NCBI RefSeq assembly: GCF_003334405.1
Contig: NZ_QOWM01000009.1
From: Escherichia coli
Lineage (GTDB): Bacteria; Pseudomonadota; Gammaproteobacteria; Enterobacterales; Enterobacteriaceae
Strand: one strand, 5' to 3'
DNA length: 64,000 nucleotides
The notes under the pieces are model-generated. The model saw nothing but the letters and a program-made list of their open reading frames with translations. It was not told where the DNA came from and did not search any database. Below are positions 20,047 through 63,718 of the stretch, one piece after another. Position 1 is the stretch's first letter, and every line of letters begins with the position of its first letter. A program made the translations under genes and the position numbers.

Positions 20047-20063
20047 TTCTCAAGGAGAAGCGG

Positions 20064-20741
20064 ATGAAACAGTATTTGATTGCCCCCTCAATTCTGTCGG
20101 CTGATTTTGCCCGCCTGGGTGAAGATACCGCAAAAGCCCTGGCAGCTGGCGCTGATGTCGTGCATTTTGACGTCATGGATAACCACTATGTTCCCAATCT
20201 GACGATTGGGCCAATGGTGCTGAAATCCTTGCGTAACTATGGCATTACCGCCCCTATCGACGTACACCTGATGGTGAAACCCGTCGATCGCATTGTGCCT
20301 GATTTCGCTGCCGCTGGTGCCAGCATCATTACCTTTCATCCAGAAGCCTCCGAGCATGTTGACCGCACGCTGCAACTGATTAAAGAAAATGGCTGTAAAG
20401 CGGGTCTGGTATTTAACCCGGCGACACCTCTGAGCTATCTGGATTACGTGATGGATAAGCTGGATGTGATCCTGCTGATGTCCGTCAACCCTGGTTTCGG
20501 CGGTCAGTCTTTCATTCCTCAAACACTGGATAAACTGCGCGAAGTACGTCGCCGTATCGACGAGTCTGGCTTTGACATTCGACTAGAAGTGGACGGTGGC
20601 GTGAAGGTGAACAACATTGGCGAAATCGCTGCGGCGGGCGCGGATATGTTCGTCGCCGGTTCGGCAATCTTCGACCAGCCAGACTACAAAAAAGTCATTG
20701 ATGAAATGCGCAGTGAACTGGCAAAGGTAAGTCATGAATAA
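20064..20741 (+). CDS. rpe: Ribulose-phosphate 3-epimerase
   Basis: 225 aa with [11 protein letters not shown] and [10 protein letters not shown] motifs. Confidence 0.95.
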
Positions 20742-21492
20742 GTTTGAAGATATTCGCGGCGTCGCTTTTGATCTTGATGGTACGCTGGTCGACAGTGCTC
20801 CTGGTCTTGCTGCTGCGGTAGATATGGCGCTGTATGCGCTGGAGTTGCCCGTCGCAGGTGAAGAACGCGTTATTACCTGGATTGGTAACGGCGCAGATGT
20901 TCTGATGGAGCGCGCATTGACCTGGGCGCGTCAGGAACGTGCGACTCAGCGTAAAACAATGGGTAAACCGCCCGTTGATGACGACATTCCGGCAGAAGAA
21001 CAGGTACGTATTCTGCGTAAACTGTTCGATCGCTACTATGGCGAGGTTGCCGAAGAGGGGACGTTTTTGTTCCCGCACGTTGCCGATACGTTGGGCGCGT
21101 TGCAGGCTAAAGGCCTGCCGCTAGGCCTGGTCACCAACAAACCGACGCCGTTCGTCGCGCCGCTGCTCGAAGCCTTAGATATCGCCAAATACTTCAGCGT
21201 GGTGATTGGTGGTGATGATGTGCAAAACAAAAAACCGCATCCGGACCCGCTGTTACTGGTGGCTGAGCGGATGGGAATTGCCCCACAACAGATGCTGTTT
21301 GTCGGCGACTCACGCAATGATATTCAGGCGGCAAAAGCGGCAGGTTGCCCATCAGTTGGCTTAACCTACGGATATAACTACGGCGAGGCTATCGATCTCA
21401 GCCAGCCTGATGTAATTTATCAGTCTATAAATGACCTTCTGCCCGCATTAGGGCTTCCGCATAGCGAAAATCAGGAATCGAAAAATGACTAA
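20734..21492 (+). CDS. gph: Phosphoglycolate phosphatase (HAD family)
   Basis: HAD motif [10 protein letters not shown]; overlaps the rpe stop by 8 nt. Confidence 0.9.
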
Positions 21493-22660: not shown

Positions 22661-22778
22661 ATCCTCATTTGCAATAATCCGAAAAAATGTGAAGTGCCTC
22701 GCCGTTTCCACATCTCGCTGTTGCGCCTTATCTTCAAATCCCTGAAGATATAAATATTCAATTTACTGAAAATTTATT

Positions 22779-23684
22779 ATGCGTCGAACGTTTATCAAAA
22801 AAGAAGGCGTCGTCATCACGACGCTGGCCCGTTATTTGTTGGGTGAAAAGTGCGGTAATCGATTGAAAACCATAGATGAGCTGGCAAATGAATGCCGTTC
22901 ATCCGTTGGCCTGACGCAGGCCGCGTTGAAAACGCTGGAATCAAGCGGAGCGATACGGATTGAACGCCGTGGGCGCAATGGCAGTTATCTGGTCGAGATG
23001 GATAACAAAGCATTGCTGACTCATGTGGATATCAACAACGTGGTATGTGCAATGCCCTTGCCCTATACCCGTTTGTACGAAGGCCTGGCGAGCGGATTGA
23101 AAGCCCAGTTTGATGGCATTCCTTTTTACTATGCGCACATGCGTGGCGCGGATATTCGCGTGGAGTGTCTGCTTAATGGCGTGTATGACATGGCGGTGGT
23201 TTCGCGACTAGCGGCGGAAAGTTATCTCACGCAAAAAGGCTTATGCCTCGCGCTGGAGTTGGGGCCGCACACCTACGTTGGCGAGCACCAGTTGATTTGC
23301 CGTAAAGGCGAGTCCGCAAACGTGAAGCGCGTGGGGCTGGATAACCGTTCGGCGGATCAGAAAATCATGACCGATGTTTTTTTTGGCGGTAGTGATGTGG
23401 AACGAGTCGATCTCTCTTATCACGAGAGTTTACAACGCATTGTTAAAGGCGATGTCGATGCGGTGATCTGGAACGTGGTGGCGGAAAACGAACTGACCAT
23501 GCTGGGATTAGAGGCGACGCCGCTCACAGACGATCCGCGATTTTTACAGGCCACCGAAGCCGTGGTCCTGACGCGAGTCGATGATTACCCAATGCAACAA
23601 CTGCTGCGTGCCGTTGTAGATAAACACGCCCTGCTCGCCCATCAACAACGGGTAGTGAGTGGGGAACAGGAACCGAGTTATTAA
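22779..23684 (+). CDS. yhfZ: Putative transcriptional regulator of the yhf cluster
   Basis: 301-aa ORF, first gene of the co-directional yhfZ-yhfS block; regulator role is inferred from remembered annotation, not from a motif I can point to. Confidence 0.78.
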   Translation: MRRTFIKKEGVVITTLARYLLGEKCGNRLKTIDELANECRSSVGLTQAALKTLESSGAIRIERRGRNGSYLVEMDNKALLTHVDINNVVCAMPLPYTRLYEGLASGLKAQFDGIPFYYAHMRGADIRVECLLNGVYDMAVVSRLAAESYLTQKGLCLALELGPHTYVGEHQLICRKGESANVKRVGLDNRSADQKIMTDVFFGGSDVERVDLSYHESLQRIVKGDVDAVIWNVVAENELTMLGLEATPLTDDPRFLQATEAVVLTRVDDYPMQQLLRAVVDKHALLAHQQRVVSGEQEPSY

Positions 23685-23700
23685 ACGAAAGGCATCTGAT

Positions 23701-48365: not shown

Positions 48366-48998
48366 TTAACGAGTGCCGTAAACGACGATGGTTTTACCGT
48401 GTGCGGAGATCAGGTTCTGATCTTCCAGCATCTTCAGAATGCGTCCCACGGTTTCACGAGAACAGCCGACAATCTGACCAATTTCCTGACGGGTAATTTT
48501 GATTTGCATACCGTCCGGGTGAGTCATAGCGTCTGGTTGTTTTGCCAGATTCAGCAGAGTCTGTGCAATGCGGCCCGTCACGTCGAGGAACGCCAGGTTG
48601 CCCACTTTCTCTGAAGTGACTTGCAGACGACGCGCCATCTGTGCAGACAAACGCATCAGAATGTCCGGGTTTACCTGAATCAATTGGCGAAATTTTTTGT
48701 ACGAAATTTCAGCCACTTCACAGGCGGTTTTCGCACGTACCCATGCGCTACGTTCCTGGCCCTCTTCAAACAGGCCCAGTTCGCCAATAAAATCACCCTG
48801 ATTCAGATAGGAGAGGATCATTTCTTTACCCTCTTCGTCTTTGATCAGCACTGCCACAGAGCCTTTAACGATGTAGTACAGCGTTTCCGCTTTTTCACCC
48901 TGGTGAATAAGCGTGCTCTTGGATGGGTACTTATGAATGTGGCAATGAGACAAGAACCATTCGAGAGTCGGGTCTGTTTGCGGTTTGCCAAGCACCAT
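48366..48998 (-). CDS. crp: cAMP receptor protein (global transcription regulator)
   Basis: 210 aa with the characteristic C-terminal [20 protein letters not shown]; stop TAA. Confidence 0.97.
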
Positions 48999-49299: not shown

Positions 49300-49704
49300 A
49301 TGCAAGCGCGAGTGAAGTGGGTCGAAGGGTTAACTTTTCTGGGCGAATCCGCCTCTGGTCATCAGATTTTAATGGACGGCAACTCAGGCGATAAAGCACC
49401 AAGTCCGATGGAAATGGTGTTGATGGCGGCGGGTGGTTGCAGTGCCATCGATGTGGTTTCGATCCTGCAAAAAGGGCGTCAGGATGTGGTCGATTGTGAA
49501 GTAAAATTGACCTCTGAACGCCGCGAAGAGGCACCACGCCTGTTTACGCACATTAATCTGCATTTTATCGTCACCGGTCGCGACCTGAAAGACGCAGCGG
49601 TTGCGCGTGCGGTTGATCTCTCTGCCGAGAAATATTGTTCAGTGGCGTTGATGCTGGAAAAAGCGGTGAATATTACTCACTCGTATGAAGTGGTTGCCGC
49701 GTGA
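49300..49704 (+). CDS. yhfA: OsmC-family protein
   Basis: 134-aa ORF divergent from crp. Confidence 0.85.
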   Translation: MQARVKWVEGLTFLGESASGHQILMDGNSGDKAPSPMEMVLMAAGGCSAIDVVSILQKGRQDVVDCEVKLTSERREEAPRLFTHINLHFIVTGRDLKDAAVARAVDLSAEKYCSVALMLEKAVNITHSYEVVAA

Positions 49705-49758
49705 CTTAACTATCCCGTTGTGAAGCCGGATAGTATTTTATCCGGCGTAATAGCAGAG

Positions 49759-50628
49759 TTACTCGATTTTCTTTCCTTCCATCAATCGTTGCACCAGCGG
49801 CAGCATAATTAATTCCATTGCCAGACCCATTTTGCCGCCCGGTACCACTAACGTATTGATGTGGGAAATGAATGAGCCTTGCAACATCGCCAGCAGCCAG
49901 GGGAAATCGATCCCTTCCAGATTACGAAAATGGATCACCACAAAGCTTTCATCGAGCGACGGGATACCTTTTGCCGCGAACGGGTTTGAAGTGTCGACGG
50001 TGGGAACGCGCTGGAAGTTAAGATGGGTGCGGGAAAACTGCGGTGTGATGTAGTTGATATAGTCTTCCATTGAACGCACTACTGAGTCCATCACTGCTTC
50101 TCGTGAGTGCCCGCGCTCGCTGGTGTCGCGGATCAGTTTTTGAATCCACTCAAGGTTAACGATAGGCACCACGCCGACCAGTAAGTCCACATGCTGCGCA
50201 ACGTTATGCTGTGGCGTGACTACGCCGCCGTGTAAACCTTCATAAAACAGTACATCAGTGGGTTCCGGTAAAGGTTGCCAGGGGGTGAATGTCCCCGGTA
50301 CCTGATTCCACGGTACGGCTTCGTCGTAGGTATGCAGATATTTGCGAGATTTCCCTTTGCCGCTCTGACCGTATTCAATGAAGGTTTGTTCCAGCAGGCC
50401 GAAGTCGTTAGCCTCGGGGCCGAAGTAGCTGATATGCCGCCCGGCGTCGCGCGCTTTGCGGATCGCCATGTCCATTTCCGGGCGGGTGTAACGGTGAAAA
50501 CTGTCGCCTTCCACCTCAGCTGCATGCAGATTTAACTGCGCGAATATTTTACGAAACGCGAGGCTGGTGGTGGTGGTCCCCGCGCCGCTGGATCCTGTTA
50601 CCGCAATGACCGGATGTTTGGCAGACAT
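49759..50628 (-). CDS. prkB: Phosphoribulokinase-homologue (P-loop kinase)
   Basis: N-terminal P-loop VIAVTGSSGAGTTT; 289 aa. Confidence 0.85.
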   Translation of the reverse strand: MSAKHPVIAVTGSSGAGTTTTSLAFRKIFAQLNLHAAEVEGDSFHRYTRPEMDMAIRKARDAGRHISYFGPEANDFGLLEQTFIEYGQSGKGKSRKYLHTYDEAVPWNQVPGTFTPWQPLPEPTDVLFYEGLHGGVVTPQHNVAQHVDLLVGVVPIVNLEWIQKLIRDTSERGHSREAVMDSVVRSMEDYINYITPQFSRTHLNFQRVPTVDTSNPFAAKGIPSLDESFVVIHFRNLEGIDFPWLLAMLQGSFISHINTLVVPGGKMGLAMELIMLPLVQRLMEGKKIE

Positions 50629-50681
50629 AGTAACTCCATGACTTAGCTATCATTATTATCTCGTCCGCCGACGGTTGCAGG

Positions 50682-50900
50682 TTATTCGCGAAACTGACTG
50701 CGCGGCATAATATTGACCGTTTCGTGCAGCTCCGACCATACCAGCACCGCTTCTCCGCACTGTAGCTGGCGTTTGACGTCGGCGACTTTCTGTTCAAGTG
50801 TACGCTCATGTTCACCATAATCGGTGCCTTCACGTAACACAAAGCTTTCAATTAAATTTTCCAGCGTTTCGGGGGAGAGGTCTTGCCACGGAATCAACAT
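50682..50900 (-). CDS. yheU: Small conserved protein (UPF0270-type)
   Basis: 72 aa; start overlaps the yheT stop by 7 nt. Confidence 0.72.
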
Positions 50901-51916
50901 GATTTCGCCTCCAGATACGTTGTTAACCAGTCAGGAATGCGTGACTCCAGCCACATTTGCGGATGAAGTAATGTACCGCCAATAAAGCCAACATGACCGC
51001 CATGTTCAGTCAGTTGATACTCCACCTGCGGGGGGAGACTTTCCGGTTTCGGGATCACCTGATGATCCATAAACGGATCGTCTTTGGCGTGAATAATCAG
51101 CGTCGGTTTGGCGATCCGGTTCAGCATCGGCATGGCGCTACACTGACGATAATAGTCGATAGCGTCGGCGTAGCCGTGAATTCTGGCGGTGATGAGATCG
51201 TCAAATTCACGGATGCGACGTACCGATTTTAACTGCGCGAGATTAATCGGCAGCGTTCCGGGGTAGGCTGCCAGCTTGCGCGCGGCATTGGCTTTTAACA
51301 GGTTCAGCAAGTAACGCTGATAAACGCGGGAAAAGCCCTTTTCCATATGATAGCTACAGGCTTCCAGCATAAACGGCGCAGAGACAATCACCGCCGCATC
51401 AACCGGGAGATCATTGCCTTCCTTTGCCAGCAAACAGGCCAGCATATTACCGCCGAGCGAATAGCCGACGGCAGCCGTTGGCGCATGACCAAATTCGCGT
51501 TGCAGCCAGCGTAAAAACCAACTGGCGTCTTCGGTTTCGCCCGAATGGTAAATGCGGTGCATACGGTTTGGTTCACCGCTGCATCCGCGAAAATGCATCA
51601 CCACGCCCAGCCAGCCGCGCTTTTGCGCCGCCTCAACCAGACCGTGGGCGTAAGGGCTGTTGAGACTGCCTTCCAGCCCGTGAAACACCACCAGACGAGG
51701 TTTATGTTGCGCCTGTGCAGGGTTTTCACTCCACGCAAGATCGACAAAATCGCCGTCGGGCAACTCCAGCCGCTGCCAGTACGGGGTGAATTTCACCTGA
51801 CGACGAAACAGACGCGGCAGCATGGTTTGCAGATGACAATTGCTAAAGCCGCGCATGGGGATGAATTCAGCACTGCTGCTGAATTCATTGGCATCGGTCG
51901 TCGTTATCTGCGCCAT
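50894..51916 (-). CDS. yheT: Alpha/beta-fold hydrolase
   Basis: Nucleophile elbow GYSLGG; 340 aa; start overlaps the yheS stop by 1 nt. Confidence 0.85.
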
Positions 51917-53829
51917 CAGTTGCTTTGGCCTTCCAGCAGCATCTGCTCAAGCTGCTCCTGGGCTTCCAGCCATGCCATTTCGCACTCTTCCAGGCCGGAT
52001 TTGGCGCTGGCTTGCTGTTGCAGGCAGGCGGTCAACTCCGCTTTACGGCTCTGGTCATACAGTTCGCTGTCGCCGAGTTTCTCTTCCGCCTGCGCCAGTT
52101 GCGCGTTCAGCTTCTCCATCTCTTTTTCCAGACGGGCAATCTCTTTACGCAGTGGCTGGGTTTGCGCACGCAGCTCAGCTTCCCGACGCTTCTGATCTTT
52201 ACGTGCCTGGGCGCTGTTCGCATTCTCTTTTGGCGCTTCGTCGGTCTGGTTTTCCTGCTTTTGTACGTCGCTCAACCACTGTTGATAATCTTCCAGATCG
52301 CCGTCGAACGGTTCGACTTTACGATCGTGAACCAGGTAGAGATCGTCAGTGGTGGAACGCAGCAAATGACGGTCGTGCGAAACGACAACCAGCGCGCCTT
52401 CAAACTCGATTAATGCTTCGGTGAGTGCCTGACGCATGTCGAGGTCAAGGTGGTTAGTCGGTTCGTCGAGCAGCAGCAGATTCGGCCGCTGCCAGACAAT
52501 TAATGCCAGCACCAGGCGGGCTTTTTCCCCACCGGAGAAGCGGCGCGTTTCTTCGGTTACTTTATCGCCCTGGAAACCAAAGCCGCCGAGGTAGTCACGC
52601 AGTTTTTGTTCCAGCTCCTGCGGCGCTAAACGTGCCAGATGTTGAATAGGTGATTCGTCGGCGCGCAGGTATTCAAGTTGATGCTGGGCGAAGTAGCCGA
52701 GTTTGATCCCTTTCGCCAGACCAATTTCACCGCTGACTGGCGCAAGTTCACCGGCTAACAGTTTGATTAATGTCGATTTACCCGCGCCATTGCGGCCTAA
52801 CAGACCAATACGCGAGCCGGGCACCAGGTTCAGTTTAATCGAGTCGAGAATAATGCGATCGCCATAGCCCGCGCTGACTTTTTCCATCTTCAGTAACGGA
52901 TTTGGCAGGCTTTCCGGCGCGCGGAAGCTAAAGCGGAACGGGTTGTCGACGTGCGCGGGGGCAATTAGCTCCATACGCTCGAGCATCTTAATGCGGCTCT
53001 GGGCCTGCTTCGCTTTGGTGGCTTTGGCACGGAAACGGTCGATATAACTTTGCAGATGCGCTACGCGTTCCTGCTGGCTTTCGTACATCGCTTGTTGCTG
53101 CGCCAGACGGGTGGCGCGCTGTACTTCAAACGAACTGTAGTTGCCGGTGTACTCGAACATGCTTTGTTGTTCGATATGAATAATTTTATCGACGATCGGA
53201 TCGAGGAAGTCGCGGTCGTGAGAGATCAGGATCAGCGTGCCCTGATAGCTCTTCAGCCATTTTTCCAGCCAGATAACGGCATCGAGATCGAGGTGGTTAG
53301 TCGGTTCGTCGAGCAGCAGCAAGTCTGAACGGCAAATCAGCGCCTGGGCAAGGTTAAGACGCATACGCCAGCCCCCGGAAAAATCACTTACCGGGCGCTC
53401 CAGTTGTTCATTGCTGAAACCGAGGCCGTGCAGCAGGCTGGCAGCACGGGAGCGAATACTCCATGCGTCAATAGCATCCAGCTTGCCATGAATGGTCGCA
53501 ATGGCGTGCCCGTCGTTACGTTCGTTGGCGTCGTGTAGCTGCGCTTCTAGTTGACGATATTCACGGTCGCCGTCAATGACATATTCCAGCGCCGCTTGCG
53601 GTAACGCCGGCGTTTCCTGATTCACCCACGCCAGTTGCCAGCTTCCCGGAAAGGTGTAGCTGCCGCCGTCGGCGCTGATTTCATTTTTCAGCAATGCCAG
53701 CAGGGTAGATTTACCACAGCCGTTTTTACCCACCAGGCCGACTTTCTGCCCAGGGTTGATGGTGGCGGTGGCATTATCCAGCAGGACGCGCACGCCGCGA
53801 CGAATTTGTAACGAGGAGAAAACAATCAT
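51916..53829 (-). CDS. yheS: ABC-F family ATPase (two tandem ABC domains, no TM domain)
   Basis: Two Walker A motifs (GKNGCGKST, GRNGAGKST) and two ABC signatures (FSGGWRMR, FSGGEKAR) split by a charged linker; 637 aa. Confidence 0.9.
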   Translation of the reverse strand: MIVFSSLQIRRGVRVLLDNATATINPGQKVGLVGKNGCGKSTLLALLKNEISADGGSYTFPGSWQLAWVNQETPALPQAALEYVIDGDREYRQLEAQLHDANERNDGHAIATIHGKLDAIDAWSIRSRAASLLHGLGFSNEQLERPVSDFSGGWRMRLNLAQALICRSDLLLLDEPTNHLDLDAVIWLEKWLKSYQGTLILISHDRDFLDPIVDKIIHIEQQSMFEYTGNYSSFEVQRATRLAQQQAMYESQQERVAHLQSYIDRFRAKATKAKQAQSRIKMLERMELIAPAHVDNPFRFSFRAPESLPNPLLKMEKVSAGYGDRIILDSIKLNLVPGSRIGLLGRNGAGKSTLIKLLAGELAPVSGEIGLAKGIKLGYFAQHQLEYLRADESPIQHLARLAPQELEQKLRDYLGGFGFQGDKVTEETRRFSGGEKARLVLALIVWQRPNLLLLDEPTNHLDLDMRQALTEALIEFEGALVVVSHDRHLLRSTTDDLYLVHDRKVEPFDGDLEDYQQWLSDVQKQENQTDEAPKENANSAQARKDQKRREAELRAQTQPLRKEIARLEKEMEKLNAQLAQAEEKLGDSELYDQSRKAELTACLQQQASAKSGLEECEMAWLEAQEQLEQMLLEGQSN

Positions 53830-61591: not shown

Positions 61592-63718
<2,127 letters not shown>

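Follow-up and report, generated by a model that had tools for sequence, protein, structure and literature searches.

Escherichia coli is the best-studied organism, and phosphoribulokinase (PRK) is one of the two enzymes deemed unique to the Calvin cycle. Why does its core genome contain an enzyme of the Calvin-cycle type to which no role has been assigned? The question is raised by prkB, a gene in a 64,000-nt stretch of an E. coli contig (NZ_QOWM01000009.1, assembly GCF_003334405.1), here called the window. Settling the function of PrkB would add a missing piece to the metabolic map and might reveal a use of ribulose 1,5-bisphosphate (RuBP) that does not depend on RuBP carboxylase/oxygenase (RuBisCO). 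The gene is already annotated, and the puzzle of its role is already recognised, though little publicised. According to a 2023 review, PRK is exclusive to phototrophs and methanogens (PMC9978339). For prkB, we establish here the identity, the fold, the conservation of catalytic residues, the purifying selection, the absence of RuBisCO and the synteny. On balance, these sequence comparisons lead us to expect a working ribulose 5-phosphate (Ru5P) 1-kinase whose regulation and lid chemistry are altered and whose flux is low or conditional. The gene and its immediate elements are:

49759-50628, minus strand: prkB coding sequence, an ATG-started open reading frame of 289 amino acids plus stop, encoding a type I phosphoribulokinase homologue

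50634-50637, minus strand: Shine-Dalgarno sequence GGAG, 5 nt before the prkB ATG

50569-50610, minus strand: codons of PrkB residues 7-20, VIAVTGSSGAGTTT, which comprise strand 1 and a P-loop without lysine, GSSGAGT(S/T)T, typical of type I PRKs

RefSeq names the open reading frame prkB and its product 'phosphoribulokinase'. The gene and its surroundings (1.8 kb) match E. coli K-12 MG1655 at 100% identity, and it occurs once in each of 5,426/5,426 complete E. coli genomes. PrkB matches the entire Pfam model PF00485 (E = 1.6e-76, model positions 1-196 of 196) and scores 524.7 bits against the NCBIfam equivalog NF011997 'phosphoribulokinase', whose cut-off is 362. Both matches, and the segment VIAVTGSSGAGTTT as it had been quoted, back the original prediction of a P-loop kinase of the phosphoribulokinase/uridine kinase family. 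An identity as uridine kinase was rejected, as the NCBIfam model for Udk gave only 27.5 bits against a cut-off of 180. A search for defence systems with PADLOC found no match for PrkB or for the products of the nearby genes yheU, yheT and yhfA. Judged by its family and domain matches, PrkB is a full-length type I phosphoribulokinase homologue.

The only solved type I PRK, that of Rhodobacter sphaeroides (Rs; 1a7j), aligns over its residues 1-289 with residues 1-288 of PrkB (E = 8e-94, 50% identity). An AlphaFold2 model of PrkB (mean pLDDT 89.7) superposes on this structure with TM scores of 0.91/0.94 and a root-mean-square deviation of 1.8 A. PRKs from the cbb operons of Cupriavidus necator pHG1, Acidovorax, and Paraburkholderia are 58-61% identical to PrkB (C. 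necator CbbP, 59%). PrkB has in common with 1a7j and CbbP the length of about 290 amino acids, the P-loop GSSGAGT(S/T)T, and the catalytic and Ru5P/ATP-binding residues, and its predicted fold includes the C-terminal domain through which type I PRKs assemble into octamers. Unlike the cbbP-type genes, however, prkB lies outside any cbb operon, and no RuBisCO was found in the genome. The plant-type and cyanobacterial PRKs (e.g., 6h7g, 6kev, 6gve) and the archaeal PRK (5b3f) are about 20% identical to PrkB, with TM scores of about 0.56-0.63 to its model. They belong to the same Pfam family and possess the same catalytic Asp/His and the lid motif K-x-x-R-D-x-x-x-R-G, and the plant-type enzymes even have His at E. 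coli position 174, as does PrkB. However, they are dimers, some of which are under redox and CP12 regulation (PMC9978339), and they keep Arg where PrkB has Ser186. The uridine and cytidine kinases (Udk/UCK2) share with PrkB the superfamily, PF00485, and a P-loop core resembling nucleoside monophosphate kinases, and reach a Foldseek TMq of 0.41-0.51 to the PrkB model. Unlike PrkB, they have neither the C-terminal domain of PRKs nor the residues for Ru5P binding. One database protein (P0001, 377 amino acids) consists of a plant RbcS chloroplast transit peptide fused to a sequence 100% identical to PrkB; this is evidently an engineered construct that sends PrkB to chloroplasts.

Does PrkB retain what a PRK needs for catalysis? 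In total 92 sequences were compared: an orthologue set, which comprised the best 80 of more than 600 matching stretches in a scan with one genome per species, and 12 PRKs from cbb operons. The P-loop of PrkB (residues 12-20) reads GSSGAGTTT, and G12, S14, G15, and G17 are unchanged in all orthologues and all cbb-operon PRKs. Also present in PrkB are D42, H45, R49, Y97, H99, E130, K164, R167, D168, and R172 in E. coli numbers, where Tyr97 and His99 correspond to Rs 98 and 100, and E130, K164, R167, D168, and R172 to Rs 131, 165, 168, 169, and 173. All of these catalytic and substrate residues are the same in every sequence of both sets (80/80 orthologues, 12/12 cbb PRKs), which have 66 invariant alignment columns in total. 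Rs Glu131 and Asp169 are Walker-B-like, with roles reportedly assigned by the Miziorko laboratory. The Asp-His catalytic dyad of PRK consists of Rs Asp42 and His100 of the mobile loop (PMC9978339). His45 and Lys165 have been assigned to Ru5P, Arg168 to ATP and the transition state, and Arg, Tyr, and His residues to a phosphate site (PMC5241800); in all, Rs His45, Arg49, Tyr98, Lys165, and Arg173 count as Ru5P-binding, and PrkB has each of them. Loss of key active-site residues on alignment had been envisaged as a refutation of the original prediction; none of them is lost, and all are kept.

RuBisCO was found neither by a motif scan nor by tblastn in the 64-kb window, blastn detected no form I or form II RuBisCO genes in the 5,426 complete E. 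coli genomes, and the motif of the RuBisCO large subunit occurs in 0/80 of the orthologous loci (9-21 kb each). Ten PRKs carried on plasmids or chromids, and also the representative P0129, are by contrast all located in cbb operons or next to RuBisCO. The original prediction had stated that neither RuBisCO nor any other Calvin-cycle partner is present in the window. This is correct for RuBisCO but not strictly so for the other partners, because the window contains homologues of cbbE and cbbZ. The product of rpe (20059-20736, plus strand) is 63% identical to C. necator CbbE and makes Ru5P, the substrate of PRK, and that of gph (20729-21487, plus strand) is 35% identical to C. necator CbbZ. The two genes overlap each other in the dam operon, 29 kb from prkB. 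Both have housekeeping roles of their own in E. coli. Three homologues of cbb-operon genes, rpe, gph, and prkB, are thus found within 30 kb of a RuBisCO-less genome; their proximity could be the remnant of an ancestral cluster or a coincidence.

All 80 orthologues belong to heterotrophic Gammaproteobacteria (67-99% identity) of the orders Enterobacterales, Aeromonadales, Vibrionales, and Alteromonadales, the last represented by Shewanella, Colwellia, Pseudoalteromonas, Idiomarina, and others. The retention of prkB from Escherichia to Vibrio, Shewanella, and Colwellia suggests that its function matters to many heterotrophs. Sequences from Photorhabdus and Photobacterium are already contained in an older PRK phylogeny. 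In our neighbour-joining tree, the heterotroph sequences (80/80) form a single clade that falls within the cbb PRKs and has a RuBisCO-adjacent PRK as its sister. The ratio of nonsynonymous to synonymous substitution rates (dN/dS) of prkB, calculated against six Enterobacteriaceae, is 0.010-0.041, which is below the values of yheT, yheU, and yhfK and similar to those of yheS and yhfA; on this ground, prkB as a pseudogene or relic was rejected. The nesting of the clade among cbb PRKs, the purifying selection, and the invariant catalytic residues together indicate that prkB is a functional descendant of an autotroph-type PRK. The gene would have descended from a PRK of a cbb operon and, in a single clade of heterotrophic Gammaproteobacteria, would have been retained for a purpose that does not involve RuBisCO. 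As delimited by these comparisons, the prkB clade is RuBisCO-less, monophyletic, and under strong purifying selection, and this delimitation is added by the present analysis.

Orphan PRKs are also found outside the clade. P0126 and P0133, from marine or uncultured bacteria, are full-length type I PRKs with housekeeping neighbours and no RuBisCO within 6 kb. They are 50-53% identical to PrkB but, unlike PrkB, keep Arg187 (Rs numbers), the counterpart of Ser186. The type I PRKs at L082:6001-6888, L083:1504-2391, and L085:6001-6891, likewise of marine or uncultured bacteria and 50-53% identical to PrkB, are flanked by leuS, lptE, uvrD, truA, and tpiA; they too keep Arg187 and have no RuBisCO within 6 kb. 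Orphan PRKs may be more widespread than the clade of E. coli.

In which respects, then, does the heterotroph clade differ from the autotroph enzymes? Four alignment columns are fixed oppositely in the clade and in the cbb PRKs, namely H69Y, Y175H, R187S, and Q273E in Rs numbers. The position of Rs Arg187, which is Ser186 in PrkB, is Ser in 80/80 clade members and Arg in 12/12 cbb PRKs, and pairwise alignments place Arg here in all five solved PRK classes (1a7j, 9qko, 6h7g, 6gve, 5b3f). When 150 cluster representatives of the whole family were compared, almost all with Ser at this position were at least 63% identical to PrkB, and most other representatives outside the PrkB clade have Arg. Arg185, beside Ser186, is kept in 78/80 orthologues. 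In the structural model, Ser186 is located in the second lid helix (residues 176-199), beside the loop that bears Arg172 and His174. Arg187 is presumably tied to nucleotide interaction. To go by their titles, papers by Miziorko dealt with 'invariant arginines in the mobile lid' as well as with 'the allosteric regulatory site'. Tyr68 and His174 of PrkB represent a reciprocal His/Tyr swap relative to the cbb PRKs, and the alignment to solved structures shows that genuine PRK classes differ from one another at positions 53 and 69.

Further differences concern charged residues. In place of Rs Arg31, present in 12/12 cbb PRKs, most clade members have Gln, Met, Ser, or Thr and a few have His, and Rs Lys/Arg53 (12/12 cbb PRKs) is replaced by Asp or Glu in 78/80 orthologues. 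At Rs 234 and 257, Arg is found in 46/80 and 45/80 orthologues, respectively. The E. coli counterparts of Rs Arg31, Arg234, and Arg257 are Gln31, His233, and His256. The three arginines reportedly belong to the NADH activator site (work of Kung et al., 1999); if this assignment holds, the activation of PrkB by NADH is probably altered. Type I PRKs are allosterically activated by NADH and inhibited by AMP (PMC4806589). Because Arg187 is exchanged for Ser, position 31 is non-basic, and Lys/Arg53 has become Asp or Glu, the regulation of PrkB and its nucleotide and lid chemistry have probably changed, and in the mechanism proposed here both would differ from those of autotroph PRKs. The recognition of these diagnostic substitutions in the aligned PrkB clade, foremost among them the replacement of Arg187, which is otherwise universal, is added by this analysis.

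Full-text searches of the accessible literature found no paper on an assay, phenotype, substrate, or role of E. coli PrkB; most matches for 'prkB' concern the prkB of R. sphaeroides, gene lists from metagenomes, or unrelated abbreviations. The supplements of the y-ome paper contain no prkB entry as text. For the PRK of R. sphaeroides, a Km of about 0.1 mM is on record. The substrate of E. coli PrkB had initially been described as unresolved, and this agrees with the searches, which yielded no published demonstration of one.

In the mechanism that we favour, PrkB would transfer the gamma-phosphate of ATP to C1 of D-ribulose 5-phosphate, its putative substrate, and form RuBP, and the flux through the enzyme would be very low in ordinary laboratory conditions. 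Several observations weigh against this reading, and the most pertinent experiments among them are indirect. RuBP made in E. coli by a cyanobacterial PRK is not metabolisable and arrests growth (PMC4475311). When active RuBisCO was combined with an inactivated heterologous PRK in strain BL21 (LB, 22 C), only basal 13C-labelled 3-phosphoglycerate (13C-3PGA) was obtained (PMC4475311), and therefore the chromosomal prkB gave no measurable RuBP in this strain, medium, and temperature. Moreover, the exchange of Arg187 for Ser is fixed in 80/80 orthologues and positions 31 and 53 are without positive charge; the fixed changes would fit a shift of the substrate or phosphoryl donor as well as a regulatory shift. 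No conserved neighbour that hints at a use of RuBP was found at the 80 loci. Such points could also mean that the PRK scaffold was neofunctionalised for another acceptor (xylulose 5-phosphate, sedoheptulose 7-phosphate, or another ketose phosphate) or for another donor, in which case RuBP would not be the physiological product of PrkB. The clade-fixed R187S, H69Y, Y175H, and Q273E, the charge reversal at position 53, and the loss of Arg31 are in line with such a change, as are the lid helices, which in the model bring residues 174 and 186 beside the catalytic Lys164, Arg167, and Arg172. It would also be consistent with RuBP being a toxic dead end in E. coli, where RuBisCO is not fed by the native PrkB (PMC4475311), and with the failure to detect RuBisCO in E. 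coli or at any of the 80 loci. However, every residue to which the literature assigns Ru5P binding or catalysis is invariant. Since plant-type PRKs have His174 as well and variation is seen at positions 53 and 69, only Arg187 is truly exceptional, and its neighbour Arg185 is kept in 78/80 orthologues. Furthermore, the NCBI family is a PRK equivalog, and no neighbouring gene points to another sugar. We regard a different acceptor or donor as rather unlikely.

A flux that is very low or undetectable in the laboratory, combined with very strong purifying selection, might also point to a role in regulation or sensing. Small amounts of RuBP, or of a breakdown product, would then signal the pentose-phosphate, ATP, or redox state, or PrkB would act mainly through protein-protein contacts, instead of serving metabolic flux. 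A precedent exists in autotrophs, where RuBP is a co-inducer of the LysR-type regulator CbbR (PMC4806589), and prkB is located in a conserved block with yheS, which codes for an ABCF translation factor, and near crp. However, no RuBP-binding regulator was found nearby in the clade genomes, and near prkB there is neither a CRP site above chance nor a riboswitch. We know of no RuBP-binding regulator in these genomes. The synteny with yheS, yheT, and yheU breaks in Alteromonadales, so that this linkage is not obligatory, and the case is largely an argument from absence; a regulatory role thus appears improbable. By far the least credible explanation is that prkB is an evolutionary relic, left over from an ancestral cbb cluster and without present function. 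The nesting of prkB within the PRKs of cbb operons and the location of rpe and gph within 30 kb would fit this scenario, but a dN/dS of 0.01-0.04, catalytic residues that are invariant over four orders, and the presence of the gene in 5,426/5,426 genomes are incompatible with neutral decay.

If the Ru5P 1-kinase reading is correct, what might RuBP be for? Tentatively, and with more doubt than we attach to the kinase activity itself, we suggest that heterotrophs among the enterics, vibrios, and alteromonads may use RuBP, or a closely related sugar bisphosphate made by a PRK of the Ser186 type, in a role that needs no RuBisCO, either as a regulatory metabolite or within a pathway not yet described. 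One chemically possible route, which is speculation, is a beta-elimination of the C1 phosphate of RuBP to 1-deoxy-pentodiulose 5-phosphate, which has the constitution of phospho-AI-2. Should a RuBisCO-independent role prove true, R187S and the loss of charge at positions 31 and 53 would mark a distinct functional subclass of PRK. For the design of synthetic autotrophic E. coli, both the endogenous PRK and the toxicity of RuBP are relevant.

Can the neighbouring genes narrow down the function? The elements around prkB are:

48366-48998, minus strand: crp, beyond yhfA as seen from prkB

49300-49704, plus strand: yhfA, 134 amino acids, OsmC family (NCBIfam NF008009), convergent with prkB

49725-49746, both strands: GC-rich stem-loop with a 9-bp stem, between the stop codons of the convergent prkB and yhfA

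50629-50681, minus strand: yheU-prkB spacer of 53 nt, with no terminator-like structure

50682-50900, minus strand: yheU, 72 amino acids, YheU family (NCBIfam NF003438), uncharacterised, the next gene upstream of prkB

50894-51916, minus strand: yheT, 340 amino acids, alpha/beta hydrolase (NCBIfam NF008218; PF00561 at E = 2e-41)

51916-53829, minus strand: yheS, 637 amino acids, ABCF ATPase, the first gene of the same-strand series

These coordinates bear out the neighbours named in the original prediction, crp/yhfA on one side and yheU-yheT-yheS on the other. They correct the order, because prkB had been placed upstream of yheU-yheT-yheS and is instead downstream, as the last gene of the same-strand series. 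The reading frames of yheS and yheT share 1 nt, and those of yheT and yheU share 7 nt. In the spacer between yheU and prkB, the terminator scan found nothing, and the fold of the spacer is no better than that of shuffled sequences (z = +0.82). Its length is 18-100 nt in most Enterobacteriaceae and goes down to 18-30 nt in several genera, and across 27 Enterobacterales loci its sole conserved element is GGAGT, which contains the Shine-Dalgarno sequence. According to a bioRxiv preprint, yheT, yheU, and prkB are co-cistronic downstream of yheS, and in a SELEX-chip study yheST is given as an operon that has an internal promoter. From this arrangement, prkB is probably read through from yheU as the last gene of yheS-yheT-yheU-prkB, and in Enterobacterales and Vibrionales the four genes would be co-transcribed in this order.

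A promoter directly in front of prkB is not obvious, as the spacer contains no consensus sigma-70 promoter. A -10-like hexamer (GATAAT, TATAAT, or TATACT) occurs about 25-35 nt before the prkB ATG in a subset of the Enterobacteriaceae, here within 50640-50665 on the minus strand. It is also seen in the spacers of loci L003, L004, L007, L010, L013, L014, and L015 and is missing where the spacer is only 18-30 nt long; it may be a facultative internal promoter. CRP sites gave 31 matches in the window, with 25.8 expected, and none of them in the spacer, and the Rfam scan detected no element or riboswitch near prkB. At the other end of the gene, the stem-loop at 49725-49746 is predicted to fold strongly on either strand (minus strand, -18.7 kcal/mol, z = -3.25; plus strand, -23.3 kcal/mol, z = -4.5). 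No U-tract follows it on either strand and it is thus not a canonical intrinsic terminator. Nevertheless, its predicted stability and its position suggest that it probably forms the 3' end of both the prkB and the yhfA transcripts.

At 54-55/80 loci, yheT, yheU, and prkB follow one another in this order on the same strand and face a convergent yhfA, with crp on its far side. Further upstream, yheS and then kefG lie within the fetched flank in about half as many loci. At most loci of Enterobacterales, Vibrionales, and Aeromonadales, yheU is syntenic with prkB, and yhfA adjoins prkB at 54/80 loci, including Alteromonadales loci without yheT and yheU. Upstream of prkB, most Alteromonadales have unrelated genes with housekeeping functions, namely the rpsM-rpoA-rplQ operon, an fkpA-like gene, nudC, and hemE, and therefore synteny reveals no metabolic partner. 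The search for a functional partner by synteny was rejected on the same grounds, with YheT a generic hydrolase and YheU and YhfA uncharacterised.

Two other loci of the window deserve mention. The yhfZ-yhfS cluster (22774-30183) encodes a GntR-type regulator, a PRD protein, pyridoxal phosphate-dependent enzymes, the phosphopentomutase homologue yhfW, and php, which is related to phosphotriesterases; it, too, is a little-characterised operon of the window with a relation to sugar phosphates. Lastly, rpsG is annotated as an incomplete pseudogene with a missing C-terminus in the MG1655-derived genome NZ_CP032667.1 (L088:13295-13762, corresponding to about 63038-63505 of the window). This call is probably either an artefact of annotation or assembly or a reflection of the known stop-codon difference in rpsG of K-12.

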